64,000 bases of DNA from Candidatus Omnitrophota bacterium (GTDB lineage: Bacteria > Omnitrophota > Gorgyraeia > Gygaellales > Profunditerraquicolaceae): NCBI GenBank assembly GCA_028716705.1, contig JAQUPI010000003.1, forward strand, positions 7,737-71,736. Direction: 5' to 3'. A program made the position numbers and the translations under genes. Below, piece by piece: positions 30,001 to 59,867 of the stretch (position 1 is its first letter; each line of letters starts with the position of its first letter). Below the pieces are notes generated by a model. It ran no database searches. It was given only the letters and a program-made list of their open reading frames with translations, and was not told where the DNA came from.

Positions 30001-32797
30001 CGGAGAGTTTTTGATATATTACGAGGTGCCGATGTCTTCAGCCGCCGTATTCTTATATGAAGAGAACATAGAGGGATTTGTAATATCCCTGAAAAAAGCG
30101 GGCTTTATTGTAGAAGGGCCGGAACATATCCTGTCTTCTGTGAATTATGCCGTAACCATAAGAGCTAAGAAGCCGCGGAAGGAAGACTCAATTTCAGCAA
30201 AAGCGCTGCGGGAGAAAGCCGTCCCGATCCTTTATGATCTGGGGTATTCAAAAGGATCCCTGGATCCGCTGCTAAAGGAACTTGAGACCCTGTTCAAGGA
30301 GATCGATGCCAGAATGGGGCTGGCCAGGCTTCAAAATGAATTAAGCCAGGCCCTGCAAGCGAATAATGCCGCGCGTCTTATAGCCCCTCTTAACGGATTG
30401 AATTCGCTGTTTGAGGAAAACAACTATAAGAACGTTTACCGTCCAAGGCCGATAATAAATCTATTGATCAACGGCTTAAACGCGGAGGATATCTTTGAGC
30501 GCATAATGCAGACCGAGATCCCGACCATGCTCAAGCTTAAAGCCAATGAAACGCTCATTTCCTGCACTGCCATTTCCCAGCTGGGTTACACCGTTTTGAG
30601 GTCATTGGGCGTGGATGCCAAGGGAGCGATCTCCCCAAGGCACGCTTTCCTCGGAATGGAGCTTAGCGGCGGCCGGGTCCTGTTCATTGATTTCTACAGG
30701 AATATATTCCGTGCGGTCAATATCGCCAGGTATTACAGGAAAGAAGGGGTGTATTTTGTCCTTAAGGAAAAATACAGGCTCAGCCGGAAGGAGTTAGGGG
30801 GGATTACGGAAAGAGTTGCCGCTGTTAAGGGCGGAGAAAGAATAACTGTGGTAGAGAGTTTGAGAGGCAACAAACTTCTGCATTGGAAGTTCTTTTACAT
30901 TAAAATGATCAGTTCCGGGGGAGTTTCCCGCCTTATCCATAACAACCTGGGCCTGGCTTACGGGACTCTAGGCATCTATAATGAAGCGATCTTGGCCTGC
31001 AAAAAAGCCATAAGATTGGACCCGAATTACGCGGATGCCTACAACAACCTGGGGATCATTTACGCCCACCTGGGGCAATACGATAAGGCTATCACGGAAT
31101 TAAGGAAGGCAAAGAAATTGAATCCCAACGATAACGGCATCATTTCCAACTTGGATAAGCTTTATGGTATGCAGGGCGGGATAGGCAAAACCAGTTACCT
31201 GGCTGAAGGCGAACCGCTGGGCATAGACACCCCGGCCGTATCTTTAAATAAGATGTTATTAGGCTGGGCAGGAAGATACAGCGAAGATGAGATTTTGATG
31301 CTGATAAAAAAAGCCAAGGCAGAAAAACGCATAAAGAACCCGGGGCTTAAGCTTGGATTACGTTTATGGATGGCGCAAATACGAACCAACACTTTATTAG
31401 AAACCCTGGCCAAACAAGGGCGGATCGCGGGGCCTCCTTTTATCAAGGGTTTCCGGTTGATCATGAATGAGAATAACGCGCTGACATTCGGCGCTTACAT
31501 CAAACAAGGCATCCTTTATATCGAGCAACCCCTCCTTCAAGACCGTTCCCTCGAAGAGATCATCCTGCATGAAAAAATCGAGATTGTTGCCAAAGACCAT
31601 GCGATAGCGCAAGGCCTGACAAGAGAAGTTCTCACCACTTCGCTGCGCGTACATACATCTAATATCAGGCATATCATTGGCACGGTGCTTAAGCACCGTT
31701 ATTTCCCGCTGTCGATTTTTATTTCCATGATCGCGTTTACCGCCCTAATTTTTACCTACAGGGACACGATTATAAATTTGGGCGTTTTTGATTACCGGCT
31801 GGCGGCATTCCTTACTTCGGCAGTGACTAATGCCACCGTTTTTATTCCGGACACAGGCCTTGTTATAATCCTTTCCCTGGCCGCGGCGTATAATCCTGTT
31901 ATAGTGGGGATTATGACCGGTTTGGGAGCGATCACAGCATTGCTTATGACCTATTTTGGAGGCCGCATTATCCGTTCTTTAGTAAAAGGAGACCGCATAG
32001 ACCGTATCGAGCAAAGGGTAAATCACGGGATAGAGAAACGGGGATGGCTCTTTATCCTATTCGCTTACGGCATCCCCATACCTTCTCCCCTTCCTGAGAT
32101 CACGGGCATAGTAGCCGGAGCCACGAAGTTTTCCATTTCCAGATTCCTTATGTTTATCGTATGCGCTACGGCGGGAAATGTGATAAAAAGCGTTTTTTAC
32201 GCCTGTATCGGCGCATGGCTGTTGAATTTATACGGGCCTGCAGTATTGAACTTTTTCAAGGAGAATGTGCTTATCTTCGCGCCTTTAGCGGGAATAGCCG
32301 TGATCTTCATCGCTTTTGTAGCGATCTTAAAGCTGGTCCCGGAAATAAAAAGGATCCCCGCGTTTGCGTCTATAGACAGGTTACTGACAATTGAGGGCAT
32401 AAAGTTGTTGTTTGAGAAATCCGGGCAAGGCATAAGGATTTCGAAGATAAGCGTAAAGAAAATCAGCATAAAGCCGGTCAGGATAATCATAAAGGGAATA
32501 AGGATCAGGGTCAGGCCGTTGAAAATAAAGGTCAGGGCGCTCAGGATAAAGATCAAAAAGTTAAGAATAAAAGTAAAGAGGCTAAAGATAAGTATAAAGA
32601 AGCTGATTATAAAGAAGGGGGGGATTTCGGAGAACCGGGAAGAAAAAGCCTGCCCGGAAAATAATACAAAAAGAACGCAGGAGAAAACTAATAACCAGGA
32701 CCTTGCCATCGAAAATCTGAGCAATGGTATGGAATCTATGCAGGGAGGTAAGACGGCGCAGATAGAGAATGCCACGGTTATTTCCAGCCGGATATAA
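2..32797 (+). CDS. Giant multidomain protein, 5'-partial. The reading frame is open from window position 2. The first start-like codon in the window is GTG at 185. More than 10,930 aa lie in the window.
   Basis: Continuous stop-free frame for 32.7 kb in ~50% GC DNA. Many recognisable protein motifs occur in this single frame (listed as sub-features). The frame is still open at the window start, so the true start lies upstream. Confidence 0.9.
   Translation, partial: [10931 protein letters not shown]
440..960 (+). other. Domain in giant ORF: class I SAM-dependent methyltransferase fold
   Basis: Motif I '[12 protein letters not shown]' (glycine-rich SAM loop) followed by an acidic residue ('VEIDE') and a post-II region, in the usual Rossmann order. 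Confidence 0.6.
5692..7240 (+). other. gpmI: Domain in giant ORF: 2,3-bisphosphoglycerate-independent phosphoglycerate mutase (iPGM/GpmI-like), apparently full length
   Basis: '[10 protein letters not shown]', '[22 protein letters not shown]', '[10 protein letters not shown]', 'TSHTLNPV' and the C-terminal '[23 protein letters not shown]' match the iPGM family signatures in correct order over ~515 aa. Confidence 0.85.
7255..7790 (+). other. Cluster of ~4 predicted transmembrane helices inside the giant ORF, immediately after the iPGM domain
   Basis: Hydrophobic stretches '[40 protein letters not shown]', '[16 protein letters not shown]' and '[17 protein letters not shown]'. Confidence 0.5.
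10175..10198 (+). other. CxxxCxxC motif (radical-SAM-like [4Fe-4S] cluster motif) in the giant ORF
   Basis: In-frame 'C-S-V-Q-C-D-Y-C'. It is a single motif and no further radical-SAM landmarks were recognised. Confidence 0.3.
17300..17935 (+). other. Domain in giant ORF: RelA/SpoT-type HD ((p)ppGpp hydrolase-like) domain
   Basis: '[14 protein letters not shown]...[10 protein letters not shown]' and downstream '[13 protein letters not shown]' mirror the SpoT/RelA HD-domain blocks ('GEPYI.HPL.VA', 'LLHDVVEDT', 'IKLADRLHNMRTL'). Confidence 0.6.
20000..20470 (+). other. Domain in giant ORF: CHAT / caspase-like (clan CD) peptidase-like segment
   Basis: '[12 protein letters not shown]' (His block) and '[14 protein letters not shown]' (Cys block) resemble the His/Cys dyad motifs of CHAT domains. 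Confidence 0.35.
22580..23150 (+). other. Three helix-turn-helix / winged-helix DNA-binding-like motifs inside the giant ORF
   Basis: '[30 protein letters not shown]' (DeoR-like HTH), '[24 protein letters not shown]', and '[39 protein letters not shown]' (MarR/TrmB-like wHTH). Confidence 0.45.
26238..26475 (+). other. Domain in giant ORF: transglutaminase-like cysteine-protease core (C...H...D)
   Basis: '[17 protein letters not shown]...[23 protein letters not shown]' shows the Cys / His-x-Trp / Asp spacing of the transglutaminase-like superfamily. Confidence 0.3.
27340..27935 (+). other. pcm: Domain in giant ORF: protein-L-isoaspartate O-methyltransferase (PIMT/Pcm)
   Basis: '[15 protein letters not shown]', '[19 protein letters not shown]', '[19 protein letters not shown]' and 'GRVYTIEI' match PIMT blocks in order. 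Confidence 0.8.
28045..28515 (+). other. HEAT-like helical repeats in the giant ORF
   Basis: Repeated '[25 protein letters not shown] / [10 protein letters not shown] / [13 protein letters not shown] / EEVRKHA' helical-pair pattern typical of PBS-lyase/HEAT repeats. Confidence 0.45.
28600..28990 (+). other. Second class I SAM methyltransferase-like domain in the giant ORF
   Basis: '[11 protein letters not shown]', an acidic residue at 'IECVDS', and 'FDIAFLNYP...[10 protein letters not shown]' are in the usual motif I / II / post-III order. Confidence 0.45.
29461..29735 (+). other. GNAT-like acetyltransferase segment in the giant ORF
   Basis: '[41 protein letters not shown]' resembles the GNAT motif A region (R/Q-x-x-G-x-G/A-like with the following helix). 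Confidence 0.3.
30925..31160 (+). other. TPR repeats (about 2.5) in the giant ORF
   Basis: '[63 protein letters not shown]' fits the canonical 34-aa TPR consensus. Confidence 0.7.
31690..32365 (+). other. C-terminal multi-pass TM block with DedA/SNARE-associated-like signature in the giant ORF
   Basis: Several hydrophobic helices plus '[48 protein letters not shown]', which resembles the DedA/TVP38 family core. Confidence 0.4.
32400..32625 (+). repeat. Periodic K/I/R-rich low-complexity tail near the C-terminus of the giant ORF (in-frame ~9-nt periodic DNA repeat)
   Basis: '[60 protein letters not shown]'. The DNA shows repeated AGGATAAAG-like units. Confidence 0.8.
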
Positions 32798-32848
32798 AAT
32801 TGGTTTTAAAAATAGGATTAATTAACAAATTTAGAGGAGGTGAGAAGG

Positions 32849-33178
32849 ATGGACGAGAATAACGGGTTTAAAGAGGACCGCAGGATTTTCGAAAGATTTT
32901 CTGCTGTCATGCCCGCGAATTTGATCGATCTGGACGCGGGAAAGGAATTGGAAGCAACTACTTGCGACGTAAGCGCAAAAGGCGTAGGGGTAGTGTGCGA
33001 AGAGCATTTAACACCGGGAAACCGTTTAGAGTTGTGGTTAAGGATCAAAGACGGGAGAGAACCGCTTTACACCAAAGGCACGGTAATGTGGGCCAGGCCG
33101 GAAGAAGGCAAATGCAGGGCGGGTATCTTGTTGGAGAGGGCAGAATTGATGGGTATGGCGCGAATACTCAGATCGTAA
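32849..33178 (+). CDS. Single-domain PilZ protein (predicted c-di-GMP receptor). A GTG at 32840 is an alternative start.
   Basis: AGGAGG RBS at 32835-32840. Canonical PilZ motifs 'RRIFER' (RxxxR) and 'DVSAKG' (DxSxxG). It lies 52 nt after the giant ORF stop. Confidence 0.8.
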   Translation: MDENNGFKEDRRIFERFSAVMPANLIDLDAGKELEATTCDVSAKGVGVVCEEHLTPGNRLELWLRIKDGREPLYTKGTVMWARPEEGKCRAGILLERAELMGMARILRS

Positions 33179-33231: not shown

Positions 33232-33259
33232 TTGACAAAACGTATTTATATGTTATACT
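33232..33259 (+). promoter_or_regulatory. Sigma70-type promoter: TTGACA - 16 bp - TATACT with TGn extended -10
   Basis: TTGACA at 33232-33237 and TGTTATACT at 33251-33259, at near-consensus spacing. Confidence 0.55.
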
Positions 33260-33392: not shown

Positions 33393-34916
33393 ATGTTGAG
33401 AAAATTCAGGCTAAAGCTGGTTTACGGTTTCATATTCAGCCTCTTTATTCATGCCTTTTCTTTTGCCATGGCGAAAGAAATCAACATCCCCAGCCAGTTC
33501 GGTAGCACAAAAGAAATATTCCAGCCCGCGAATCCCGGCCCTTCCGCAGAACGCACCATCATCCATATACAGGACGCGCATTGTAATTATGAGGCCCAAA
33601 AAAACATGGCCCAGCTCTTAGATTATTTGGCCAAAGATGACAATCTTAAACTGATCATGGTCGAAGGCGGTAGCGGGGACGTCAGCTTGCGGTTTTTAAG
33701 GGGCTACGCGGATAAGAAGGCCAGAGAACAGGTCGCGGAAAAATACCTTAAGGCGGGAAAGATCTCCGGCGAAGAGTATTTGGATATCGTTTCCGATCAC
33801 GCTATAGAGCTTTACGGGATAGAGGATGAAGGCTTGTATGAAGCGCATTTGGCGAGTTTCCAAAAAGTGGATTCTTTCAGGCAGAAGGCGCTGCAAGATT
33901 TAGGGGCCTTAGCAGGCATAGTAAATGGGCTCAAATCCAGGATATATCCGGAAGATCTGCGGCGTTTAGACGAACAAAAAAGCAGTTATGAGGGGCAAAA
34001 GACCGCGTTAGCCGAATATTGCCGCTTCCTTAATAATACAGCCGCAAAAAAGAGGATCGGCCTTGGCGCTTACCCGCACCTGGGCGCCTTTTCAGAGACT
34101 GCCCGCCTGGAAAAAGAACTGGACCTTAGGCAAGCGGAAGCCCAGCGCAACGCTTTCATCAAGGATCTGGCCAAGCTTTTAAACGAAAGAGAGGCGCAGA
34201 ACCTTATCCTTATGACCCAGGGTTTTAAGGCAAAAATGATCACTCCTGAGAAATATTATTCTTTTTTGTTGGACACCGCCACCGAACAAAAGATCAACCT
34301 GAGCCGCAGGTACCCTGAGCTTGGCGCTTATATCAGGTACGTGACCACAAGCGGGAATGTAGACGCGGCCGAGCTTTTAAAGGAAGTAAACGCGGCAGAA
34401 GAGAAGATAAAAGACGCTTCATTGAGCAGCCCTGAACAGAAGAAATTATCCGAGATTGACAAATCCCTCCATATCTTGACCAAAATACTGAACTTGGAAT
34501 TGACCCCTGAAGATTACGCGTATTTCAAAGAAAACACGCGCCGGTTCATGACTGCCGGTTGGATAGGTTTTTTAAATGAAGAGTGCGACAAATATAATTT
34601 TTCCACCCGGCCTTTTTTTGTCAAGGCCATCGATGAAAACCTGAAGGAGCTTGACGGATTTTACCGGTTGGGAGTAGCAAGGGAAGAGGCCTTTATCAAT
34701 AATTTGGCGGCCAAGCTCGACGATTCAAAAGAAAAGACCGCGGCGCTCATTACCGGCGGGTTCCACACGCCGGGCATTACCCGCAATTTAAAGAACCGCG
34801 GTTATTCTTATATAGTAGTCACCCCGGTGATCACGCAGAAAAGCGAACCGGACCTTTATTTTTCCGTGCTAAGAAGCGAGAAAAGACAGCCCGTAAGGGT
34901 TTCCGATGAAGAATAG
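33393..34916 (+). CDS. Exported hypothetical protein (507 aa) with an N-terminal signal peptide; possible ChaN/EreA/Tiki-superfamily fold
   Basis: RBS GGAG. Hydrophobic N-terminus 'LVYGFIFSLFIHAFSFAMA'. The 'TIIHIQDAHCNYEAQKNMAQLLDYLAKDDNLKLIMVEGG' pattern is reminiscent of the ChaN/EreA N-terminal block (weak). The stop overlaps the next gene by 11 nt. Confidence 0.7.
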   Translation: MLRKFRLKLVYGFIFSLFIHAFSFAMAKEINIPSQFGSTKEIFQPANPGPSAERTIIHIQDAHCNYEAQKNMAQLLDYLAKDDNLKLIMVEGGSGDVSLRFLRGYADKKAREQVAEKYLKAGKISGEEYLDIVSDHAIELYGIEDEGLYEAHLASFQKVDSFRQKALQDLGALAGIVNGLKSRIYPEDLRRLDEQKSSYEGQKTALAEYCRFLNNTAAKKRIGLGAYPHLGAFSETARLEKELDLRQAEAQRNAFIKDLAKLLNEREAQNLILMTQGFKAKMITPEKYYSFLLDTATEQKINLSRRYPELGAYIRYVTTSGNVDAAELLKEVNAAEEKIKDASLSSPEQKKLSEIDKSLHILTKILNLELTPEDYAYFKENTRRFMTAGWIGFLNEECDKYNFSTRPFFVKAIDENLKELDGFYRLGVAREEAFINNLAAKLDDSKEKTAALITGGFHTPGITRNLKNRGYSYIVVTPVITQKSEPDLYFSVLRSEKRQPVRVSDEE

Positions 34917-37900
34917 ATTAAATAGAAAACAATTAAAAAGGAGAATGAAAATGAACGCAGGGAATTTCCACAAGAGTTTATTGGCCAGGATAATGAGCCT
35001 TATCATTATCGTAAATTTCATTATTACCACCGGCCCTGTGAGCCTTTACGCGCAGGACATGTTGAAGGCGCCGTCAGCGGTCCAGAAAAATGACAGTCCT
35101 GTCCAGAATTTGATCGACGATCTCAGGGCGACGCAGGCAGGCCGTGAAATAGCCGCCTTTAAACGGATCGGCATACTCACCAGCGGCGGCCCGGCTTCCG
35201 GACATAACGCGGCCATTTACGCGGCAGTCGAAAAAATGAAAGAGCAGGGCATAGAGGCAGTGGCGATCCTGGACGGTTTTGACGGATTATACGAGGAGAA
35301 ATTAGTCAGCCAGGCACGGCCCCTTAGCCTGGAAGAGGCAAGGTCCCAGCGCAATAAAGGCGGGACAATGCTCGGTACTGACCGCATGAACCCCTTTGAG
35401 GCTAAAAATGTCGCAAACGGAGTTCCGCAGGCGATCTGGACGAATATCCAGAAGCTGAAACTGGACGGCTTGATCGTTCTCGGAGGCAACGACAGCCAGA
35501 GCACGTCTTATAAATTACAACAAGAGCATCCGGATTTCCCGATCATAGGCCTGGCTAAGACTATGGATAATGATCTGGCTTTACCTGAATTGGATGCTTT
35601 AACCTACGGTTTTGATACTTTTGTCAGGGAAACCACAAGGGCCCTGATAAAAATGATCCGCGATTGCCGCTCTATGAGAAGGATCGGGGTGGTTGAGGTA
35701 TTCGGCAGGAGCGCGGGGCATGTAGCGTTGCACGCCGGAGCCAATGTCAGGGCAAGCCGTACACTTTTACCCGAGGAAGGCAACCTTGATCTAGAGCAAC
35801 TGGTGAGCGACCTTAGAGAGAGCAAAAATAATGATAAATACAGAGCAGCCTTGTTAGTAGTTTCAGAAGGCATAAGTATAAGCAAGGATTACAAGAATAA
35901 CGCAGGCATATTGGAAAAAGCTTTTGCCGAAGACGAAGTGGCCAAGGCGGCTTTTGAAAAGGCGGTTAAGGGCGCCAAAAAAGATTCCTTCGGTAATCCT
36001 AAACTGGAGAATACCGGGAAAATCATCGCCGCGGTCTTGCGCTCGCAGGGTTTAGCCGTGAGCGAAGACCAGGTTAAATACATCGCGCGTTCGGCCAACC
36101 CTTCAAAGTTAGATATCGCCATGACAGAGCTTATAGGCCGCGCGGCGGTAGAAAATCTTTTGCAGGGAAACCATGGCCGCATTTTATACGCCTATAACAA
36201 TCAAGCCAGGTCTATCCCGTTCGCCTCGGACGTGGGGGGCAGAGTAGCGGACCTGACAGGGCATAAGCAGCTGTATTTAAGGGCGAACCAGGCCTTTGAT
36301 ATTAAGGTATCGGATAAGCCGGCTCTGAATTTTGCGAATACGGCTGAAGTCAATAGCGCGATAGCCGGCATATTGGCTGTCAGCGACAAGGCTGTCAGCG
36401 TGCTTGATGAAGAACGCCTGAGGAGCCAGCTTATTGATAACCTGGTTTATGACGCTACATTCGGCAGCGATAAGGAAGTAGTTAAGCTTTGCCGCCGGCT
36501 CATTAAAGACACCGCAGCCGCCCAAGGCGCGGTGCTCGGTTCTGTTTATGAGCTTTACAGGGCGAAAGCGAAAGATAAAAAACAATATACAGTCCCGGCG
36601 ATAAATATCAGGGGCATGGGTTACAATACCAGCAGGGCGGTATTCGCCTCAGCCATAGATAACAATGCCGATAAGTTCATCTTCGAGATCGCAAGGAGCG
36701 AGATAGGTTATACGGCTCAGCGGCCGGCGGAACTAGTTACCTCCGTTTTAGCGGCGGCGATCAAGGAAGGCTATAACCTGCCTGTATACCTGCAAGGCGA
36801 TCATTTTCAGGTTACGCTTAAGGACTATACGGCAAGCCCGGAAAAAGCAAAAGATTATATTAAAGGGTTGATCCGCGAGGCGATAGAAGCGGGCTTCTAT
36901 CAGGTAGACCTGGATATGTCACAACTAGTGGATTATACCAAGGCCGATGTTCAAGAGCAGCAGGAACTGAACTACAAATTAGTGGCTGAACTTACCGCTT
37001 ACGTGAGGGATTTGGAAAGGGAATTAGGTTTAGACAGAGCGGGTATCGTTGTTAATTTGGGCGGTGAAATAGGAGAGATCGGCAAGGGCTTAGCCGAAAA
37101 GGACCAGAAGAACAGCACCGTCGCGGAATTAAGGGCGTTTATGGACGGTTACAACGCTGAATTAAAGCGCCTCAGCCAGGAAAAAGGATACGAGCTGAAC
37201 CCTATCACAAAAATCGCGATCCAGACCGGCACTCAGCATGGCGGCATCAGAAACGCCAAAGGTGAATTGGTCAGGGCCAAGGTTAGTTTTAACGCCATTG
37301 CCGAACTCGGTAAAGTAGCCAGGGAAGAATACAGCCTGGCGGGCGTAGTGCAGCATGGCGCGTCCACCCTTCCCGAAGATAATTTTACGCTTTTCGCGGG
37401 CAACACCCCGGAAGGCCTGGTTATTGATGAAAGCCTTTTGAATGAGGCTTCTAAAAATATATTGAGCACCAACCCCGCCGCCGAAGTGCATCTGGCTACG
37501 GCTTATCAAGACACGATCATCGATCATCCCAGGATGCCCGCTTCTATGGTTTCCCAAATGAGGGAATACATTTTCAGCAAAAATCCGGTTAAGGAAAACC
37601 AGAACGCGGACGGAGTCTTTGTTTCCAACCGCAAAAATGTTTGGGGCCCGTTCAAGGCCCAGGTATGGAACCTGCCTGCTGGCGTGCAAGAAGCTATGCG
37701 CGACAGCCTGCGCGGACAATTCGACGTGGTCTTTAACAATATGGGGGTGAAGAATTCATCCCAGGCGCTTATCGCGCAAAAGGCCTCCGAAAAGGCAAAG
37801 CTTGTTAAAACAAGACTGGCTATAAATAACCCCGGTGGGCAAGAACGGGAGCTTATCAGGCTTTGGCTGGCAGGCAAATCCGCCGGTATCGACTTAGTCG

Positions 37901-40900
37901 GCGTAAACGGTATTTCTCCGGGCAGCCTGTATTATCTTTTAACCAAGGATTTCACCGCCTCCCCGGATGTCAGGGCATGGTTCACCGCTAATTTCACTTC
38001 GCTGCCGGAAGGCATAGGCGACAAAAACAAGAAACTCATTCTGCCTGTCACTGAAATTATCGACGCTAAGGACTTGCCTTGGAAGAAATTGAACCCGGAT
38101 GTCGTGCTTGAGGGTTCGGATCCGCAGCTGGCGGCCAGCCATAAGAGCCAGGGCGCGAAATCCGTCATTGTTGCCCACCCGGCTTTAACCGCGGTCAGCG
38201 CCTTAATGCCGGTCATTTCCGTCATGGGCGACCAGATCAAAGGCATCAATTTTACGGATATCCAGCCGCCTACGCCTTTACAGCGCGGCCTTGATAATTC
38301 CGGTCCGGACCCGGTATTGATGCGGGCCATGGGGATTAACCTCGTTCCTTCATTAAGAAAGGACATAGACAAATATGTGCAGGCATTATGCCCCGCGGAT
38401 CTAGCCGCGCATATAAAGGGCGCGATCAATTTTGCGCCTCAGGCGTTAGGTTCATTGCTGGACGTTCATATAGTCGTAAATAAAGATACTGACGCCGCGG
38501 CTATAAATAAACTGTTCAAGGCCGCGATCGAAGGCGTTTTAAAAGGCAAGGTATCTTACTCGCAGGATTCCTCTCTGGTATCCGTGGATACTTACCAGCA
38601 GCCGCAGCTTATCTTCTTGGCCAACAACACGAAGGTTACCGGGAAGAGGATCGTGCATTTACAATTCATGCACAATGAGGAGGCGACCTTTGCCGCGACG
38701 CAAGTACCTTTATTACTGCAGGCGCTGAAGGAGGGAAAAGCCCCCTCGATTATTACATCCAAAGATACTCAAACTATCTCCGCGGACGCTCAGGTAGTCT
38801 TGGATATCATCCAGGCAGAGCAGTCTAAGATGGCCAGGCCCGCGTTCCTGGGTACCAACCTGGCTTTTATTCCCGCTCTCGACGGCAACGTCAAGCCGCG
38901 TATCGTAGTTCGCGGCAAGGCCGTTAGTCCCGCGATCGTAGGTATAAACGGTCCCGGAAGAGTGGGCAGGCCTTCGACCTGGGCAATGCAGGGGGACCCG
39001 AATGTCGACCTGAGGATGATCAACGGTTCTTCCAGCGCTTTGATCCTGTCATGGTTATTGTCCGAAGATTCCGTGCAGCAGTCAATATCAAAGCCGGTCA
39101 CAAGAATAGTAATAACCCCCGCGCAGTTAAAGAGGGAAGTTTCCTCTCTGCTGGGCAGCTACAGTATCGAGCAGGTAAACGGATTCTTGACCGGCCTGCT
39201 TAGCTCTCAAAGATTATACCTGCTTAAAGAAAAAGAAGAATTCGTTCCTTACATCAAAAACCTCCTGGCCTCTTGGGGCAAGCCCAGTAATGAGCTTGAT
39301 TCCGCGGCCAATTGGTTGCTGAAGAGCCTGGTAGGCGTTTTAGATATTAACGGTAAAAAAGTCCTGGTAGTTAACGAGAGAAAAGCGATCACGGAACTTC
39401 CCTGGGACGTAGCAGGCATAAAGACGATCATGGAGTGTACCGGGGATCTGAAGAACGCTGACGAAGCCAGGCAGCATCTGGCGCATATTTCCGGAGGCAA
39501 GGTGATCATATCCGCTCCGGCCGAAGGAGCAGGCCAGTCTATCGTCTTGGGCGTAGTAGAGCCCAGCCGCGCTGCTCAGATCGTGGATAATGCCAGCTGC
39601 ACCACCAACTGTTTAATGCCTATGGTCGCGGTTTTGAATAAGGCATTCGGCGTGCTCATGCAGGAGATCACCACTGTCCATGCTTATACCACCGACCAGA
39701 CTTACGCCAGACAGGCAACACATAAAAAGGAAGCTACCCGCGGGAGGGACGCAAGGACGAACAGCCTTCCCGGTTCTACCGGAGCTGCCAAAACCGCCGC
39801 CGTTATATATCCGGACCTTGCCGGAAGGTCCGACGGTTGGGCAGTGCGCACGCCTCACGTCACCGGTTCTGCCGTAGCCCTGACCGCTACACTTAAGGGC
39901 AATGTGACCAAAGAACAGATACAGGCGGCGTTTAAGAGCGCCAGCGAAAAGGAAATGGCCGGGATCATGGCTTATACCCAGGCCCCGATCGTTTCTTCAA
40001 TGATCATCGGCAACCCGGCTTCCAGCATCATTGACGGTAATGCCATTGAAATCATCAGCTACGACGAAGAACTTGACCAGACCACAGCCGGTATTACCTC
40101 CTGGTATGACAATGAATATGGTTTCTCAAACCGTATGGTGAACCTTGCCGTAGCCCTGCAAGGCTTCTCTTTGATCAAAGGGAAAGCCCTGGCAGACATA
40201 GGCCCCAAAACCGTCGAGTTATTTGAAAACAAAATAAAAGAGATCTCTCCTGCCACGGTAGTCTGGAACGGGCCGATGGGCGTAGTGGAAGTTGCGGCTA
40301 CGAGCAAGGGTACTGACGGAGTGGCCATGGCGATCACCGCCTTAGGCGATAAAGTAGTTAAGGTTGTGGGAGGGGGGGATACCTTAAAGACGCTTTCGGA
40401 AGAAGAACGCGAGAAATTCACGCACGTCTCAACCGGCGGCGGCGCCTTCCTGGAGGCATTTCAATTCGGCGTGGATAATCTCCCGGGGATTAAGGCCCTG
40501 ATCGATCCTTCCACGGGCAAGATGGCGACGATGGACGGGCTCCTGCCGGTTTTGAAAGAGGGAGATACCGTCTTGATACGAGTTGACTTCAACGTGCCTT
40601 TGGATTCGCAATTAAAAGTAACAGATAGCACCAGGATCAAAGAAACAATGGTTACCATAAGGCCGTTGTTAGAGAAAAAGGCCAAGGTCATCCTGATGAG
40701 CCATTTAGGCCGGCCTAACGGGAAATTCGACGCTAAGCTTACCATGAACCCGGTGGCTTATGAACTGCAGAAACTCTTGCTAAAAACCAAAGTACATAAA
40801 TTGGATGACTGCGTGGGTAAGCCCGTGCAGGATTTTATCCAGAATACGGTAAAGCCCGGTGAAGTCGTAATGCTGGAGAATACCCGTTTTCGGTTAGACG

Positions 40901-42408
40901 AAGAACAGAATGCCTCTGGTTTTTCAAAGGATTTAAGCCAGCTGGCCACATATTACATTGATGACGCCTTTGGCACCGCGCACCGCGCGCATGCTTCGAA
41001 CGGCGGCATTACCTCAAATTACGCCTGGGGCAAGAAGTTCGCTGGCAGGCTTCTGGAGAAAGAAGAGCAGTATCTGAAACAGGTCTGCGAGAGTCCCAAG
41101 GAGCCCATGGTCGTAGTTTTGGGCGGAGGCAAGGTCAGCGATAAGATACATATCATCAATACCTTGAAACAGAAAGCGTCTGCTTTCCTGATCGGCGGAA
41201 GGATGTCTTTGGCATTCTTGGCAGCTCAGGGTCAGCAAGTCGGTGATTCCACGCCCGATAAACTTGACGTGGATACCGCCAAACGTTTCCTCGCCGATCC
41301 GCAGTTAAAAGGCAAGATCATTCTGCCGCAGGATAACATGGTGGTTACCGATATCTCTACGGGCGCGGACGCGACAGTTGTAGAAGGCAGTGTTGAGCCT
41401 TCGGATATGAGCGCGTTCCAGGAACAATTCCTGGCTTACCTTAAGTCTTATGTTGCTCTTGAAAGCGCGGAAGGAAAAGCGCTCGCTGCCGTCCAGAAAG
41501 CTGAAACCGAAGCCAGGCGGCTTATAGGTCTTCCCACCGCGCCAGAAGCTGCTCCTACTGTAACTCAGGCGGCAGTCGATCCCGCTCAATTAAGGTTCGG
41601 CGAGGCGAATGGTTTCCTTACTCCTGAGTCGCAGGCCAGAAACAAACCGGATTTCCAATATACCATGGGTTTTGGGGATGCCGCTAATTCCTACAGACCA
41701 GCCTCTGATTTAAGCCCGGCACTGCTGGTTCCCGAAGGCACCGTGTATACGGGAACTTCCGTGCTTTTCGGTAATTTCGCAAATGCCGTTAAGAATCGTG
41801 ATATAGCCGAAAGGGACGGCGCTGTCGTCATAGGGGCGAACGTGATATTGGAGAACGCGGGCTCTTTGACCAGCCTGAAGGCATTCAAGGATACAGGAAA
41901 AATCGTTGTTTATGCGCAAGACACTTCAACCCTGGAAGTTTTAAAAGCCATGGGGATAGATTCGGTAACGAAAAATATCATAAACGGGGAAACAAAAGGC
42001 GTCTCGATCGAGAATATCGCCATAGAATACAGCATGTCGGGCGAGACCGTCCTGGTTACCGCTCCCGTGGATCGTAAAGATATCAACTTAGGCAACATTC
42101 AAAAGGCTGGTGTCCGGATGTTGAATCTGGAGACGCCCAAAACTGAAGTAGGCAAGATAAACAGCATGCCGCTGGTTATCGCCAGGGCATTTGCCAGGAT
42201 TTACCAGGAAGACGCGAATGTGCCCAGGCAATTTAACACCTTAAGCAACAATTACGCAACGAAGAACCAGGTATTGGCGACAGATATCGAGAAGCTTAAC
42301 AACCTGGCTTCCCAGATCTGCGACGTGCCTTTAGTGCAGTTGAATATGGAGCAGGATAAAGAGATAATCGCGGCCCAGATGGCTTACCAGGCGGCCGTAA
42401 GCATATAA
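34906..42408 (+). CDS. 2500-aa fusion protein: N-terminal signal/anchor, then phosphofructokinase, class II fructose-bisphosphate aldolase, a ~400-aa unknown module, GAPDH, a circularly permuted phosphoglycerate kinase, and a conserved C-terminal domain
   Basis: Single stop-free frame. All four enzyme families are recognisable by their hallmark motifs in series (see sub-features). The start overlaps the upstream gene, which implies translational coupling. Confidence 0.9.
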   Translation: MKNRLNRKQLKRRMKMNAGNFHKSLLARIMSLIIIVNFIITTGPVSLYAQDMLKAPSAVQKNDSPVQNLIDDLRATQAGREIAAFKRIGILTSGGPASGHNAAIYAAVEKMKEQGIEAVAILDGFDGLYEEKLVSQARPLSLEEARSQRNKGGTMLGTDRMNPFEAKNVANGVPQAIWTNIQKLKLDGLIVLGGNDSQSTSYKLQQEHPDFPIIGLAKTMDNDLALPELDALTYGFDTFVRETTRALIKMIRDCRSMRRIGVVEVFGRSAGHVALHAGANVRASRTLLPEEGNLDLEQLVSDLRESKNNDKYRAALLVVSEGISISKDYKNNAGILEKAFAEDEVAKAAFEKAVKGAKKDSFGNPKLENTGKIIAAVLRSQGLAVSEDQVKYIARSANPSKLDIAMTELIGRAAVENLLQGNHGRILYAYNNQARSIPFASDVGGRVADLTGHKQLYLRANQAFDIKVSDKPALNFANTAEVNSAIAGILAVSDKAVSVLDEERLRSQLIDNLVYDATFGSDKEVVKLCRRLIKDTAAAQGAVLGSVYELYRAKAKDKKQYTVPAINIRGMGYNTSRAVFASAIDNNADKFIFEIARSEIGYTAQRPAELVTSVLAAAIKEGYNLPVYLQGDHFQVTLKDYTASPEKAKDYIKGLIREAIEAGFYQVDLDMSQLVDYTKADVQEQQELNYKLVAELTAYVRDLERELGLDRAGIVVNLGGEIGEIGKGLAEKDQKNSTVAELRAFMDGYNAELKRLSQEKGYELNPITKIAIQTGTQHGGIRNAKGELVRAKVSFNAIAELGKVAREEYSLAGVVQHGASTLPEDNFTLFAGNTPEGLVIDESLLNEASKNILSTNPAAEVHLATAYQDTIIDHPRMPASMVSQMREYIFSKNPVKENQNADGVFVSNRKNVWGPFKAQVWNLPAGVQEAMRDSLRGQFDVVFNNMGVKNSSQALIAQKASEKAKLVKTRLAINNPGGQERELIRLWLAGKSAGIDLVGVNGISPGSLYYLLTKDFTASPDVRAWFTANFTSLPEGIGDKNKKLILPVTEIIDAKDLPWKKLNPDVVLEGSDPQLAASHKSQGAKSVIVAHPALTAVSALMPVISVMGDQIKGINFTDIQPPTPLQRGLDNSGPDPVLMRAMGINLVPSLRKDIDKYVQALCPADLAAHIKGAINFAPQALGSLLDVHIVVNKDTDAAAINKLFKAAIEGVLKGKVSYSQDSSLVSVDTYQQPQLIFLANNTKVTGKRIVHLQFMHNEEATFAATQVPLLLQALKEGKAPSIITSKDTQTISADAQVVLDIIQAEQSKMARPAFLGTNLAFIPALDGNVKPRIVVRGKAVSPAIVGINGPGRVGRPSTWAMQGDPNVDLRMINGSSSALILSWLLSEDSVQQSISKPVTRIVITPAQLKREVSSLLGSYSIEQVNGFLTGLLSSQRLYLLKEKEEFVPYIKNLLASWGKPSNELDSAANWLLKSLVGVLDINGKKVLVVNERKAITELPWDVAGIKTIMECTGDLKNADEARQHLAHISGGKVIISAPAEGAGQSIVLGVVEPSRAAQIVDNASCTTNCLMPMVAVLNKAFGVLMQEITTVHAYTTDQTYARQATHKKEATRGRDARTNSLPGSTGAAKTAAVIYPDLAGRSDGWAVRTPHVTGSAVALTATLKGNVTKEQIQAAFKSASEKEMAGIMAYTQAPIVSSMIIGNPASSIIDGNAIEIISYDEELDQTTAGITSWYDNEYGFSNRMVNLAVALQGFSLIKGKALADIGPKTVELFENKIKEISPATVVWNGPMGVVEVAATSKGTDGVAMAITALGDKVVKVVGGGDTLKTLSEEEREKFTHVSTGGGAFLEAFQFGVDNLPGIKALIDPSTGKMATMDGLLPVLKEGDTVLIRVDFNVPLDSQLKVTDSTRIKETMVTIRPLLEKKAKVILMSHLGRPNGKFDAKLTMNPVAYELQKLLLKTKVHKLDDCVGKPVQDFIQNTVKPGEVVMLENTRFRLDEEQNASGFSKDLSQLATYYIDDAFGTAHRAHASNGGITSNYAWGKKFAGRLLEKEEQYLKQVCESPKEPMVVVLGGGKVSDKIHIINTLKQKASAFLIGGRMSLAFLAAQGQQVGDSTPDKLDVDTAKRFLADPQLKGKIILPQDNMVVTDISTGADATVVEGSVEPSDMSAFQEQFLAYLKSYVALESAEGKALAAVQKAETEARRLIGLPTAPEAAPTVTQAAVDPAQLRFGEANGFLTPESQARNKPDFQYTMGFGDAANSYRPASDLSPALLVPEGTVYTGTSVLFGNFANAVKNRDIAERDGAVVIGANVILENAGSLTSLKAFKDTGKIVVYAQDTSTLEVLKAMGIDSVTKNIINGETKGVSIENIAIEYSMSGETVLVTAPVDRKDINLGNIQKAGVRMLNLETPKTEVGKINSMPLVIARAFARIYQEDANVPRQFNTLSNNYATKNQVLATDIEKLNNLASQICDVPLVQLNMEQDKEIIAAQMAYQAAVSI
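35160..36235 (+). other. pfk: Domain: 6-phosphofructokinase (PFK-A family; residues suggest a PPi-dependent type)
   Basis: 'RIGILTSGGPASGHNAAI', 'LIVLGGNDSQST', 'GLAKTMDNDLALPELDALTYGFDT' and 'EVFGRSAGHVALHAG'. The D in GGNDS and the K in AKTMDND correspond to the Asp/Lys pair typical of PPi-PFKs. Confidence 0.8.
36580..37650 (+). other. fba: Domain: class II (metal-dependent) fructose/tagatose-bisphosphate aldolase
   Basis: 'YTVPAINIRGMGYNT', 'LPVYLQGDHFQV', 'YQVDLDMS', 'IQTGTQHGG' and 'VVQHGASTLPED' correspond to class II FBA blocks. Confidence 0.65.
38895..40160 (+). other. gap: Domain: glyceraldehyde-3-phosphate dehydrogenase
   Basis: 'IVGINGPGRVGR', 'GGKVIISAP', 'IVDNASCTTNCLMP', 'TVHAYTTDQ', 'SLPGSTGAAK' and 'WYDNEYGFSNRMVNL'. 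Confidence 0.9.
40190..40510 (+). other. pgk: Domain: the last ~105 residues of PGK (nucleotide-binding half), placed upstream of the PGK N-domain
   Basis: 'DIGPKTVELF', 'VVWNGPMGVVEV', 'VVGGGDTL', 'HVSTGGGAFLE' and 'LPGIKAL' are normally the C-terminal blocks of PGK. Confidence 0.85.
40565..41395 (+). other. pgk: Domain: PGK N-terminal (3-phosphoglycerate-binding) domain through the hinge and the first part of the C-domain
   Basis: 'LIRVDFNVPL', 'ILMSHLGRPNG', 'VMLENTRF', 'YIDDAFGTAHRAHAS', 'VVLGGGKVSDKIHIINTL' and 'FLIGGRMSLAFLAAQG'. Confidence 0.9.
41740..42405 (+). other. Conserved ~222-aa C-terminal domain of unknown function, shared with the next ORF
   Basis: 'VYTGTS..GNFA', 'GxNVILENAG.xTSL', 'VVYAQD', 'KINSMPL.I.RAF' and 'LNNLASQ.CDVPLV.L' align colinearly with 47470-48138. 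Confidence 0.8.
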
Positions 42409-42453: not shown

Positions 42454-45400
42454 ATGCGGCCTTTGAAGCCCGGCTCATTACGCAAAATCATTATATTCCT
42501 TACCCTTGTCAGTTTCATTGCGTCTTTCGCGCCGGCTCAACTCTACGCGCAGATCCTTTCCGATACGCTCAGGACATCTTCGGCCAGGGCTACTGCCGTA
42601 AAGGATGAGATCGCCGTTGATCTGCTTAGAAGCGGCAAGCTTCCCTATGTGGTCACCTACGCAGACCCGCGCTCCGAAAGGAAAGAGACTGCCGGGGGAA
42701 AGTGCGCGCAGCTGGCCTGGGCATATAACCGGGGGATCCCCAATCCTCTGGGTTTTAGCATAACCGTGGAAGCGGTGAGGGAGTATTACAGGTACAATCC
42801 CAAACTCATAGAGATGATCAAAGATGCGCGTAACCTTGACATAAACGATGCCAAGAAACGCGCGGAGACAGCTTTACGGATACAGAATTTTATGATGAAG
42901 GAAACGAAGCTCCCTCCGGCCGTTTTTAAGGCGGTAAGCGATGACCTCGTGATGATGAGCAGGGTCTTGGGTTATGAAGAGGACGAGATGGTCCCGGTCG
43001 CCTACCGGGGAAGCGGCGTTATCGAAGACTTTGAAGGAGCCATACCCTGGTTCAAGAAAACGATCGGAGCCCAGCCGGGGCAAGGCACCACGCTGCTCAA
43101 CAAGCGCGGTTTTACCGATATTGAGCCATCGGTGATCGAAGTTATCGCCGGCTTGTTCAATGACCAGATATTCGTCTACCGCGATGTCCAGATCTTTTTT
43201 GATTTTGTGAGCAAGATGCGGGATGTCTCAGAGTATAACAAATTGATCCTTTGGGCGAAGAAATACGGTTTTAACGTTGCGGCCAGCAGGCTGGAGAATG
43301 AAAATTCACCCGGCTATGTCAACCTGCGCAAGATGATCGAGGAGATCGAGGCAAAGGAGCCGGGGGCGAAAGAGCAATATAAATGGGGTGATAAACTTGA
43401 GAAATCGGCAAACGATATCCTGGAGCCCATGAATTTTGTTACCGGCATTGCCGTGCTGGAAATGGCGGATAGTTTATTTTCCGGAACCGCATTCACTTCA
43501 CACCTGGGAACCGGATTCGACGGCTCAACATTCGCCAAGAAAACAAAAGGTCTTTTCCCGAAGAAGAGAGGGGATAAGTTCGATGGTTATACCCGCTATG
43601 TAAAAATAAATTTAGGCACAGGGTTAGGGCCCGGCATTGTAGAAGGAAAATTCCAGCCGAATATCGTAACCTTCTTTGATATTACCGGCCAGGGCAAATG
43701 GGTGCCTACCGAATTTTCAGTGGGCAAGAAACACATGAGTTTGATATATATAGATAAGGTTATCGATTCTTTAGCACCAAAATTCGCAAGGGAACAGATC
43801 TACCTCTTTGCCCAGTTATACGCGGATTGGCAAAACCCGATCAAGCAGCAGGGGGTCCGGGTCGCCCTTAAAACGGAGTTCAATATCGAAGCGGAAAGCT
43901 GGATACGGGCGATGATGGACCTGTGGTATTTTTATGATAAACCCGATAAACATAAAGCCACCGCCCAGGAAAAAGCGGTTTTATTGAAGGAACTCAACGT
44001 AAACGAAAATGAATTCTTTACCTTAAGCCATTTAGTCAAACATATCAATAAGGTCGCGACCAGTTATGATACGGCCTCTTATATGCTTACTTCCCCGGAA
44101 CTCGCGTCGAGCAGGCTTTTAAGCGATGAAGGTTACAAGAAACTCGCGGACATGATCGCTAAAGTCGGCAATCTTATGGCCCAGGAGCGGTTTGAGGCCG
44201 CCGACAAGGGCTGGCGCGAGCGCAGGGATATCGAGTTTTCGGTTGTCCGCTGCAACGAAAACGACACAAGTAAATATAAGGTAAAACTGGAACATATTTA
44301 TGACCTGGTAACCGGCAATGACCTGGGGGAGGGCTGGGTAAAGATACTGCATATCCAGAACCGGCCGATCAATCCGGAAAAAGAGATACAGGACCCGGAT
44401 AACATAATTTTCAAGAAGATGAAGGTCGACGAAGATTTTGTGGACGGCCAGGGTATTTTGCCTATCGCGAAAAACGGGCTGGTTGGCTATGGAGCGGCTG
44501 AAGGCATGCTTTATTTTGTCGATCCTTACAACGACCTGGCTGAGCAAGAAGAAGAAGTCGCGAAGATGAAAGACCAGGGAAAGAGCGTGATCGTGGTCCT
44601 GGAAGAAATGGGCCCTGAGCATGATCCTATAGTAGAAAAAGCGGGCGCCGCGATCGTGTGGAGGGGTAATGACACCAGCCACGCTTATATATTCAGCCTG
44701 GAATTAAAGATCCCCATCGTTATAAACGCGGCTACGCAGCCAGGGTTCGAAGGATATCTTAAGGACCGCATGAACGCGGTTATTGACGGCTCAGGGGGAA
44801 TGATCTATCCCGGAGATAAAGAGATCCCTCTGCTTCCGGACAATCTGATCATACGCGTAGACATGCTTCCGGAGACGAAAGTCGGGATGATCGTTTCCAC
44901 GCTGCAAAGCGCGCAGGAGGTAGCGCGGTTAGGAGCGAAGAGTGTCCTTACCCGTATGGAATTTTTGATCAATAATGTAGTCAAAATATACCCGCAGGCG
45001 GGTTGGGCCTATGACCTGATGACCAAGCTGGATAACGGGCAGATAAGCGAGTCCGGCCTTACTCCCGAAGAGCTGAAAGACGTAGCGGCATTAAGGCAGC
45101 ATCCGGAGATAATAGAAGAGATCAGAAAGATGATCACAAGCTTTCCGTCGGCAACTGAATTCATGGCTGAAAAGATGCGTTATGCCGGCAACGCGCTTGG
45201 TTCTATCTTTCCTATACTTAATGAAATGCGCGCCTACGATAATAAGGAAAAAGAAGCGCTTCTTTACGGGCTTATCGGCGCCAAACTTTATCTGCGTTAT
45301 GACGATAAAAATCCTGAATTCGATTCCCCGTTGGTCGGCATGCGCGGCTCAGCGTTAATGAGCCATCCGCATCTAAAGAAGGGATTTCAGGCTTTAAACA

Positions 45401-49970: not shown

Positions 49971-49973
49971 ACG

Positions 49974-50852: not shown

Positions 50853-50857
50853 AAGAG

Positions 50858-59828: not shown

Positions 59829-59867
59829 TTGACTTATTTTGCTTTTGTTGGTAGTATAAAACCAACA
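59829..59867 (+). promoter_or_regulatory. Promoter (TTGACT - 17 bp - TGgTAGTAT) with an overlapping 7-8-7 palindrome TGTTGGT-N8-ACCAACA that ends at the ATG; candidate autoregulatory operator on a leaderless-like start
   Basis: TTGACT at 59829-59834, TAGTAT at 59852-59857, inverted repeat at 59846-59852 and 59861-59867. No RBS precedes the ATG at 59867. Confidence 0.45.

Follow-up and report, generated by a model that had tools for sequence, protein, structure and literature searches.

We analyzed a 64,000-nt stretch of DNA (hereafter, the window) from a Candidatus Omnitrophota bacterium (GenBank assembly GCA_028716705.1, contig JAQUPI010000003.1, positions 7,737 to 71,736 of the forward strand). 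One unbroken open reading frame (ORF) at 34906..42408 (+), comprising 2500 codons from its first ATG, was confirmed to encode a real single polypeptide in which glycolytic enzymes are fused. As judged from its sequence, the protein consists of a 34-aa Sec-type leader, a phosphofructokinase (PFK), a class II aldolase-fold module, a dead glyceraldehyde-3-phosphate dehydrogenase (GAPDH) fold, an intact GAPDH, a circularly permuted phosphoglycerate kinase (PGK), and a C-terminal domain (CTD), in this order. Sequence comparison assigns it to a class of Omnitrophota glycolytic proteins with a leader-cargo-CTD layout, which is defined here. A preliminary description of the window had placed four enzyme families in one frame, and this was upheld by Pfam matches for PFK, GAPDH (Gp_dh_N and Gp_dh_C), and PGK, and by the predicted fold rather than by PF01116 for the aldolase. 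The features of the fusion are as follows.

34951..35052 (+), leader Met16-Ala49: basic n-region (K23, R28), hydrophobic core IMSLIIIVNFIIT, helix breaker TGP, and predicted cleavage between SLYA and Q.
35056..35073 (+), D-M-L-K-A-P: the local form of a family motif D-x-L-R-(P), directly after the predicted cleavage site.
35161..36240 (+), aa 86-445: PFK module, assigned by Pfam PF00365 and alignment to Bacillus subtilis PFK.
36241..36585 (+), aa 446-560: conserved extension or linker after PFK, with BLAST collinearity with relatives to about aa 574.
36586..37785 (+), aa 561-960: class II aldolase-fold TIM-barrel module, a putative fructose-bisphosphate (FBP) aldolase (FBA), assigned by a weak Pfam match, profile comparison, and AlphaFold2 (AF2)/Foldseek.
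37810..38775 (+), aa 969-1290: degenerate GAPDH-fold module, assigned by Pfam Gp_dh_C (E 1.2e-8) and alignment to 1hdg.
38938..40170 (+), aa 1345-1755: intact type I GAPDH module, assigned by Pfam and motifs.
40189..40497 (+), aa 1762-1864: permuted PGK segment 1, equivalent to Thermotoga maritima PGK 292-392, with WNGPMG, GGGDT, and STGGGA.
40558..41382 (+), aa 1885-2159: permuted PGK segment 2, equivalent to T. maritima PGK 11-280, with RVDFNVP, SHLGRP, ENTRF, AHRAH, and GGGKVSDK.
41383..41721 (+), aa 2160-2272: PGK-CTD linker, collinear in the relatives P0078 and P0042, with no Pfam match.
41722..42405 (+), aa 2273-2500: CTD, an orphan alpha/beta domain with five strands, at the very end of the protein.

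An identical ORF of 2485 aa was found on contigs assembled separately from the runs SRR22315506 and SRR22315508, and P0078 (56% identical) was collinear with the fusion over aa 1401-2499 in one alignment that included the GAPDH/PGK junction. Chimeric junctions, a concern raised in the preliminary description, are therefore excluded by the two independent assemblies and the collinear relative. Similar multi-module ORFs were also present in dozens of relatives from other samples. The first ATG (34906) overlaps the stop codon of the preceding gene, while GGAG lies 7 nt 5' of Met16 (34951), where independent gene calls of the identical protein begin. Because of this Shine-Dalgarno position and these gene calls, the true start is probably Met16, with a product of 2485 aa, and the first ATG is the less likely start. 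A leaderless start at Met52 was rejected, since relatives keep the leader at the protein level and the x of their D-x-L-R is not Met. Besides the leader and one buried helix of the dead GAPDH fold, the protein contained no hydrophobic segments.

The PFK module was matched by PF00365 over aa 87-417 (E 4.6e-59; 200.5 bits against a cut-off of 30.9), and its motifs KTMDNDL (catalytic), GGNDS, and FGRSAG align with those of B. subtilis PFK. The positions that discriminate ATP- from pyrophosphate (PPi)-dependent PFKs, established as Gly104 and Gly124 of Escherichia coli PfkA, are occupied by Asp (GGNDS) and Lys (AKTMDND), respectively, and the discriminating Asp (GGDDT/GGNDS) was present in every family member examined. 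Because of these two residues, the module is predicted to use PPi as the phosphoryl donor.

The aldolase module had no PF01116 match, and its only Pfam hit was GatZ/KbaZ-like at 22.3 bits, below the cut-off of 26.7; PF01116 does match the aldolase modules of relatives. A profile of five homologues of the module matched PDB 2fiq (GatZ; E 2e-4). For an AlphaFold model of aa 546-965 (pLDDT 81.7), the best Foldseek matches were class II FBP aldolases (E 1e-11 to 1e-8), followed by the GatZ/tagatose-epimerase branch. DH, TxHGG, and QHGAS were invariant in the five homologues and resemble class II metal-binding motifs, a likeness in sequence rather than a mapping by superposition. The predicted structure thus shows the class II aldolase fold family, whereas FBP aldolase activity is suggested by the context, and the motifs do not separate it from tagatose-bisphosphate or epimerase chemistry. 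Among the four family claims, this is the weakest.

The first GAPDH fold aligned across both domains to T. maritima GAPDH (1hdg), with Cys149 replaced by Thr1095, His176 by Gln1120, and GxGxxG by NPGGQE, and from these replacements it is read as a pseudo-enzyme. Since GAPDH normally works as a tetramer, the dead fold may pair with the active GAPDH that follows it. This second module was matched by Gp_dh_N (aa 1345-1399; E 4e-15) and Gp_dh_C (aa 1570-1718; E 1.6e-44) and keeps GINGPGRVGR, ASCTTN (Cys1565), and TVHAYT (His1592). It scored 297.9 against the NCBIfam equivalog, below the cut-off of 367.2, to which a helical insertion of about 85 aa may contribute. The insertion lies in the NAD domain (39091-39339, +) and is kept in P0078, whose sequence starts inside it.

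The PGK was matched by PF00162 (E 6.8e-111; 371 bits), and all nine substrate- and nucleotide-binding motifs checked were present. It is circularly permuted, with the equivalents of T. maritima residues 292-392 preceding those of 11-280, and P0078 has the same arrangement. A relative at another locus (L003) has PGK in normal order, so the permutation is lineage-specific. Alignments showed catalytic and substrate-binding residues to be intact in the PFK, the second GAPDH, and the PGK. A tblastn search of the window with relatives bearing triosephosphate isomerase (TIM or TPI) or enolase, aimed at hidden copies of these two enzymes, found nothing outside the known modules.

The basic and then hydrophobic N-terminus of export type given in the preliminary description is present in the sequence. 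The leader has a basic n-region, a hydrophobic core, a helix breaker, and a small residue at -1; Leu, which is less usual, occupies -3. Nearly all full-length members of the class begin in the same manner, a basic n-region leading into about 23 uncharged residues and then D-x-L-R-(P), mostly DHLR or DNLR. Ahead of the hydrophobic stretch the net charge averaged +2.5, compared with +0.6 over the 15 residues that follow, and the N-terminal side carried the higher charge in 53 of 69 leaders. A small-x-small site lay within 10 residues upstream of the motif in 50 of the 52 motif-bearing leaders; in these 50, Gly or Pro occupied -4 to -9 in 38, and the motif started 0-1 residues past the site in 37. 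The family leaders averaged 36.5 aa, whereas a signal peptide of ordinary type, such as that of the 383-aa ORF at 55721 of the window, has about 22 aa. These features suggest a cleavable Sec-type signal peptide. Two other signal types were rejected. The Tat consensus S/T-R-R-x-F-L-K is absent from the fusion, which has H-K-S-L-L, and the family leaders carry mostly KR, KK, or RK, with RR being rare. For a lipoprotein signal, there is no Cys near the leader end, whereas the solute-binding protein of the window does have one.

The CTD (approximately 227 aa) is 51% identical to the C-terminus of the next gene's product. It had no Pfam or NCBIfam match, and its AF2 model (pLDDT 89.6) gave generic Rossmannoid matches only in structure comparison. 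Assignment as a HAD phosphatase was rejected, because strand 1 does not end in the DxD nucleophile motif and the similarity is merely generic Rossmannoid. A word-indexed search with the CTD profile gave three matches, while an exhaustive search of 1.84 billion representative proteins gave 108, nearly all at the extreme C-terminus of proteins spanning 200-2543 aa; when one CTD sequence was scanned against the genome collection, no relative emerged. Wherever the sources of the class carried an organism name, it was Omnitrophota. The suggestion of an Omnitrophota-like host was likewise borne out, with relatives named Candidatus Omnitrophota or Omnitrophica by NCBI and all three genome-collection matches belonging to Omnitrophota. 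With about 108 cluster representatives in its class, the protein is not unique.

A Pfam scan of 38 CTD proteins showed that the cargo consists almost entirely of glycolytic or sugar-phosphate enzymes: PPDK in ten, PGK, PFK, and GAPDH in four each, and TIM, PGI, and FBA in three each, in addition to two GatZ-like domains, enolase, FBPase, UDPGP (UDP-glucose pyrophosphorylase), and aldose epimerase. Over the whole class, whose members are 1.4-3.3 kaa, the cargo adds up to a complete glycolytic pathway. Among homologues, the CTD ends FBA-PFK-GAPDH-like proteins of about 1700 aa and a 3269-aa FBA-PGI-PFK-PPDK protein. In relatives, PGI, FBA, TIM, and enolase occur on proteins whose leader is of this type; the CTD terminates most of these as well, the exception observed being the TIM-GAPDH-PGK protein of L003. 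A strict motif search had suggested that the GAPDH-like modules of the ~1700-aa relatives were dead, but residue-level alignment overturned this, with Cys, His, and Arg231 kept. An F420_oxidored-type NAD(P) Rossmann domain was found in five of the 38 CTD proteins and might be a redox partner for GAPDH. One relative (P0003; 4059 aa) combines a cupin-type PGI, glutamate dehydrogenase, leucine-rich repeats, PFK, and an aldolase-like module.

The modules follow the order of the Embden-Meyerhof-Parnas (EMP) pathway, to which the preliminary description had attached meaning. Relatives shuffle them, however, with the orders FBA-PFK-GAPDH-like, TIM-PGK-enolase, FBA-PGI-PFK-PPDK, and TIM-GAPDH-PGK; the enzyme order varies between lineages, and therefore the pathway order in the fusion has no special meaning. 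That description had also overlooked the common CTD, the dead GAPDH module, the permuted PGK, the PPi-type PFK signature, the 507-aa gene upstream of the fusion, and the PPDK-like neighbor with the same leader and CTD. Public records name such proteins after one enzyme: a PFK+FBA+GAPDH fusion is recorded as "6-phosphofructokinase" and a PFK+FBA+PGI+PPDK fusion as "phosphoenolpyruvate synthase". Pathway reconstructions that use one-enzyme names could miss the remaining modules.

Two preprints bear on this class, and statements about them refer here and below to the passages searched. West-Roberts et al. (2023; 10.1101/2023.11.21.568195) described giant Omnitrophota proteins containing domains that resemble TPI, PGI, FBPase, PGM, FBA, and PPDK, and considered that their predicted extracellular location may be wrong. 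A 2026 preprint (10.64898/2026.06.07.730766) described "multi-enzyme metabolic cluster" proteins of at least 10 kaa with the same topology paradox. The view of the preliminary description that glycolytic fusions of this extent are undescribed is not fully supported, since glycolytic-type domains in giant proteins and their puzzling extracellular prediction were already given in the 2023 preprint. In the passages searched, neither preprint mentions a leader-cargo-CTD class, the CTD, the motif, the partner gene, a permuted PGK, PFK/GAPDH/PGK fusions, or genes between the giant gene and the transporters. A wider literature search found nothing else relevant, and the leader-cargo-CTD family is apparently undescribed.

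The fusion gene lies between a giant gene and a sugar-uptake cluster, with the following features.

185..32797 (+): giant ORF of 10,870 aa, directly upstream; iPGM at 5699-7198 and a GAPDH-like stretch at ~4310-4834.
32840..33178 (+): PilZ-like ORF of 112 aa, preceded by the giant gene and followed by the 507-aa gene; its counterpart in L005/L006 is recorded as PF07238.
33232..33259 (+): promoter-like site TTGACA-16-TATACT with an extended -10, 5' of the 507-aa gene; a consensus match, in a region where the count of such sites is not above chance.
33393..34916 (+): 507-aa partner gene, with a signal peptide and the motifs IIHIQDAHCNYEAQKN and ITGGFHTPG.
42454..48141 (+): PPDK/PEP-synthase-like protein of 1895 aa, with a leader of the type ..QLYA followed by QILSDTLR, the CTD at 47452-48138, and the T-S-H phospho-histidine kept.
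48681..51706 (+): sugar ATP-binding cassette (ABC) importer, comprising a solute-binding lipoprotein and two permeases, downstream of the fusion and also in relatives.

The giant ORF encodes a DOT1-like methyltransferase (aa 101-217), an iPGM (aa 1839-2338; E 1e-82), a winged-helix/MarR/IclR-type helix-turn-helix (HTH) array (~aa 7190-7800), PCMT and other S-adenosylmethionine (SAM) methyltransferases, and HEAT/TPR repeats. It ends in a VTT/DedA membrane domain, and its hydrophobic segments start only at aa ~2361. The GAPDH-like stretch (SCSTNG, TYHMYT, STGAAK, and AVRTP) keeps Cys, His, and Arg231 and had no Pfam match at E<1e-3. The segment at 2156-4930 (aa ~657-1582) is 41-47% identical to the cargo of the CTD proteins P0065 and P0056. 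Near its end (~32435-32620, +), the giant ORF contains strongly basic Lys/Arg/Ile-rich repeats (...KISIKPVRIIIKGIRIRVRPLKIKVRALRIKIKKLRIKVKRLKISIKKLIIKKGG), of which an antisense ORF at 32197-32775 is probably a by-product.

A pilZ gene after the giant gene agrees with what has been published for Omnitrophota giant genes, downstream of which West-Roberts et al. (10.1101/2023.11.21.568195), in the passages searched, give only PilZ, solute-binding transporters, and glycosyl hydrolases. From its position and consensus match, the promoter-like site may drive an operon of the 507-aa, fusion, and PPDK genes. The 507-aa partner had no Pfam, NCBIfam, or PDB profile match, and a ChaN/TraB/TIKI-like fold is our guess. 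Its homologues (486-556 aa; 45-50% identical) have an invariant IQDAHCNYEAQKN, MVEGGSGD, and ITGGFHTPG as well as a signal peptide, and are encoded directly upstream of CTD-protein genes in L001 (8452-9987), L003 (8457-9917), L004, and L007 (~3181-4695). The CTD of the PPDK-like neighbor and the final 226 aa of the fusion share 51% identity.

This synteny of giant gene, PilZ, ~500-aa protein, tandem CTD proteins, and sugar ABC transporter is conserved. In L001/L002, a 30,339-aa gene (19,746 aa in L002) is accompanied by a 511-aa homologue of the partner and by FBA-PFK-GAPDH-like, PPDK, and TIM-PGK-enolase proteins. In L003/L004, a 47,109-aa or 41,159-aa gene occurs with a 486/556-aa homologue, FBA-PGI-PFK-PPDK and TIM-GAPDH-PGK proteins, PilZ, and a solute-binding protein. 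Three GTDB Omnitrophota genomes contained the partner gene and/or tandem CTD proteins.

Further downstream, the window encodes a major facilitator superfamily transporter, GH2-like proteins, and ROK and LacI regulators. The two GH2-like TIM-barrel proteins (53326-55689 and 56911-58194, +) are paralogous, being 32% identical over ~400 aa; both have N-terminal hydrophobic segments, and the first also has a TPR region. The ROK protein (59867-61102, +) has an N-terminal HTH and is an NagC/Mlc-like regulator or glucokinase, and with the LacI-family regulator gene (62078-63103, +) its gene stands at the end of the sugar-uptake cluster.

Omnitrophota also possess a canonical glycolytic set. The closest homologues of the permuted PGK were leaderless PGKs of 392-410 aa (47-50% identical), many of them named Candidatus Omnitrophota, and these are encoded in a gap (350 aa)-pgk-tpiA-secG operon among housekeeping genes. 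Since these relatives are leaderless and belong to a classic operon, the leader-bearing modules have the appearance of paralogues that diverged from the enzymes of the phylum itself. The existence of the ordinary leaderless gap-pgk-tpiA operon in the phylum also argues that the leader-bearing proteins are probably a second glycolytic set, as far as sequence comparison can tell. On the Omnitrophota contigs L010-L020 (up to 475,712 bp), the leaderless gap-pgk-tpiA-secG genes were followed by an oligopeptide-type ABC transporter. According to the 2026 preprint (10.64898/2026.06.07.730766), GAPDH, PGK, and enolase were detected at strict thresholds in 176 of 176 complete genomes.

We propose, as a quite possible reading that falls short of probable, that the fusion is a subunit of an Omnitrophota-specific modular glycolytic machine, a second set located on the outer side of the cytoplasmic membrane. 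The long hydrophobic leader of the family would target each protein co-translationally to the Sec translocon, and signal peptidase would cut at the small-x-small site, exposing an N-terminus with D-x-L-R-(P). The fusion would convert fructose-6-phosphate to 3-phosphoglycerate, with PPi instead of ATP as the donor at the PFK step and with TPI supplied from elsewhere. The iPGM of the giant protein and the PPDK-like neighbor would carry out later steps, so that the whole would amount to a PPi-dependent variant of the EMP pathway. The CTD would dock the glycolytic polypeptides to one another or to a common scaffold, either the giant protein or the 507-aa partner, by the logic of signal peptide, catalytic modules, and dockerin known from cellulosomes. 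The site might be the periplasm or the predator-prey interface, where prey-derived sugar phosphates would be processed and ATP regenerated.

Export is favored by the cleavage-type site, the motif placed where the mature protein would begin, the charge bias of the leaders, and the canonical leaderless operon. The signal peptides of the 507-aa partner and the GH2-like neighbors were also counted in its favor. Secretion systems have been described upstream of Omnitrophota giant genes, and predictions place nucleotide-dependent domains on the outer face (10.1101/2023.11.21.568195; 10.64898/2026.06.07.730766). A further, rather tentative possibility is that a dedicated sorting and assembly system, comprising the leader, D-x-L-R-P, the 227-aa CTD, and the 500-aa partner, puts a complete second PPi-dependent glycolysis into a nucleotide-containing non-cytoplasmic space.

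Several observations weigh against an exported second glycolysis, whose weakest step is its sidedness. The enzymes need PPi, NAD+, ADP, and AMP, and we know of no pool of these outside the bacterial cytoplasm. The locus encodes no NADH sink, and its linkage with sugar importers also speaks for the cytoplasm. In the giant protein, the iPGM and a GAPDH-like module fall within the first ~2360 aa, with no signal peptide or hydrophobic segment before them; they would therefore be cytoplasmic by default, and the pathway would be split across the membrane. The PPi-dependence of the PFK is read from two signature residues, and no NCBIfam PFK model scored above its cut-off on this module. The docking role of the CTD is suggested by its distribution only. 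No single genome was shown to have both the canonical operon and leader-bearing proteins: the one candidate pair from a comparison of NCBI accession blocks proved to be two different metagenome-assembled genomes, and a coincidence of coordinates between L001 and the P0135 contigs was false. Moreover, pfkA was detected in 176 of 176 complete genomes only at a relaxed threshold (10.64898/2026.06.07.730766), and hence the fused PFK might be the organism's sole PFK. A membrane-targeted or exported glycolytic assembly, much as suggested in the preliminary description, stays the leading reading; the signal features point to the outer side of the membrane and the cofactor needs to the inner side.

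The strongest alternative, although we regard it as somewhat unlikely, is a metabolon on the cytoplasmic face, in which the leader would be an uncleaved anchor or a membrane-association signal. The enzymes would then be tethered near the sugar importers and the cytoplasmic parts of the giant protein and perform the main upper glycolysis and PPDK steps. Such a location would meet the need of every cargo enzyme for cytoplasmic cofactors and would suit the giant protein, whose iPGM and GAPDH-like modules are in a predicted cytoplasmic region and whose HTH and SAM-methyltransferase domains also need the cytoplasm. It agrees with the linkage of the locus to sugar importers, whose products end in the cytoplasm, and the detection of pfkA only at a relaxed threshold fits a fused PFK acting as the housekeeping enzyme. 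West-Roberts et al. themselves doubt the extracellular prediction (10.1101/2023.11.21.568195). By contrast, the charge bias of the leaders predicts an N-in/C-out topology, an anchor has no use for a small-x-small site with an upstream Gly/Pro and a motif right behind it, and a leaderless gap-pgk-tpiA operon is already present in the phylum.

Processing of the fusion as a polyprotein precursor, cut at the linkers into separate PFK, FBA, GAPDH, and PGK, would be compatible with either location but is improbable. West-Roberts et al. (10.1101/2023.11.21.568195) propose proteolysis of giant proteins from their C39 and S8 peptidase domains, and the linkers between modules are long here (aa 446-560 and 2160-2272). 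However, neither the fusion nor the 507-aa partner yielded a peptidase domain, and relatives share the linker sequences in collinear positions. The joining of the permuted PGK directly to GAPDH and the retention of a dead GAPDH suggest selection on the intact chain, and a common CTD makes little sense once the modules are released.

It is highly improbable that the fusion is a non-catalytic surface protein without a role in a pathway, with enzyme folds reused for binding or adhesion as in moonlighting surface GAPDH and enolase. The export-type leader, the catalytically dead GAPDH fold, and the strong divergence of the aldolase module would be in line with this, but catalytic and ligand residues are kept in the PFK, the second GAPDH, the PGK, and the GAPDH-like modules of distant relatives, and the cargo of the class adds up to a complete pathway. 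Finally, an artefact of assembly or gene calling, such as a chimeric contig or missed stops and frameshifts that merged separate glycolytic genes, has nothing in its favor and is refuted for practical purposes by the recovery of the same ORF from two separate runs, its collinearity with P0078 for 1100 aa across the GAPDH/PGK junction, and comparable multi-module ORFs in dozens of relatives in other samples.

If the leader is a cleaved signal peptide, substrate-level phosphorylation would take place outside the cytoplasmic membrane, which would change the view of the Omnitrophota cell plan and predatory lifestyle and resolve the paradox, raised in the two preprints, of nucleotide-dependent giant-protein domains predicted on the outer face. 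If a dedicated sorting system exists, the space it serves could be an energized periplasm or the cytoplasm of an attached prey. The system would be a bacterial counterpart of the glycosome, which would either regenerate ATP for the nucleotide-dependent domains of the giant proteins of the envelope or harvest sugar phosphates from the prey on the spot. With cytoplasmic enzymes, the class would represent a glycolytic metabolon that is natural and genetically defined and whose members have an assembly domain in common, and its covalent GAPDH-PGK pair would make the long-debated channelling of 1,3-bisphosphoglycerate directly testable. The natural permuted PGK and the retained dead GAPDH fold are also of interest for protein evolution and design.

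Among known systems, the Archaeovorins and the multi-enzyme metabolic cluster proteins share with the fusion their occurrence in Omnitrophota, the same locus, glycolytic-type domains, and the same puzzle of a location outside the membrane, and a direct link exists in the segment of the giant ORF (aa ~657-1582) that is homologous to the cargo of two CTD proteins. Archaeovorin-type proteins have tens of thousands of residues and many membrane segments; the fusion has neither and is tied to them by its genomic association with a giant gene. At 2.5 kaa rather than 10-147 kaa, it lacks internal membrane segments and has its own leader, motif, and CTD.

Two-enzyme fusions, the glycosome, and the layout of cellulosomes are best regarded as functional analogies, not as memberships. 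In the bifunctional PGK-TIM of T. maritima (NCBIfam NF010569), as in the fusion, neighboring glycolytic enzymes are joined covalently; the NF010569 match on the fusion covers the PGK part only, at 366 bits against a cut-off of 883. Diatoms and oomycetes have a TPI-GAPDH fusion that is imported into mitochondria, which likewise combines fusion with an N-terminal signal targeting another compartment. Both comprise two enzymes, whereas the protein described here has five enzyme-fold modules, a permuted PGK, a shared CTD, and a bacterial Sec-type leader. An engineered circularly permuted yeast PGK (PDB 1fw8), which was among the matches of the PGK here, demonstrates that PGK tolerates new termini after its natural ends are joined. 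In the fusion, by contrast, the permutation is natural, with the cut in the nucleotide-binding domain near residue 281-291 (T. maritima numbering), and the enzyme is fused to the C-terminus of GAPDH and kept in permuted form in a 56%-identical relative.

The kinetoplastid glycosome is a peroxisome-derived eukaryotic organelle that receives separate enzymes through short PTS1/PTS2 signals. A targeting signal common to many glycolytic enzymes that gathers a pathway in one place is the likeness to the class here, which is known from sequence, with no organelle demonstrated and no compartment known in Omnitrophota. Cellulosomal enzymes and the cargo of the type IX secretion system (T9SS) resemble the class in layout, with catalytic modules that vary from protein to protein set between an N-terminal signal that is (or here is predicted to be) cleavable and one C-terminal domain common to all, and the likeness to cellulosomes extends to the very large candidate scaffold that the class genes adjoin. 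Instead of a dockerin of about 70 aa or the beta-sandwich CTD of the T9SS, the domain here is a 227-aa alpha/beta Rossmannoid; the dockerin family PF00404 had no match on the fusion, and the CTD model is alpha/beta rather than a beta-sandwich. The cargo differs as well, being polysaccharide hydrolases in cellulosomes and central metabolism of the cytoplasmic type in the proteins described here.

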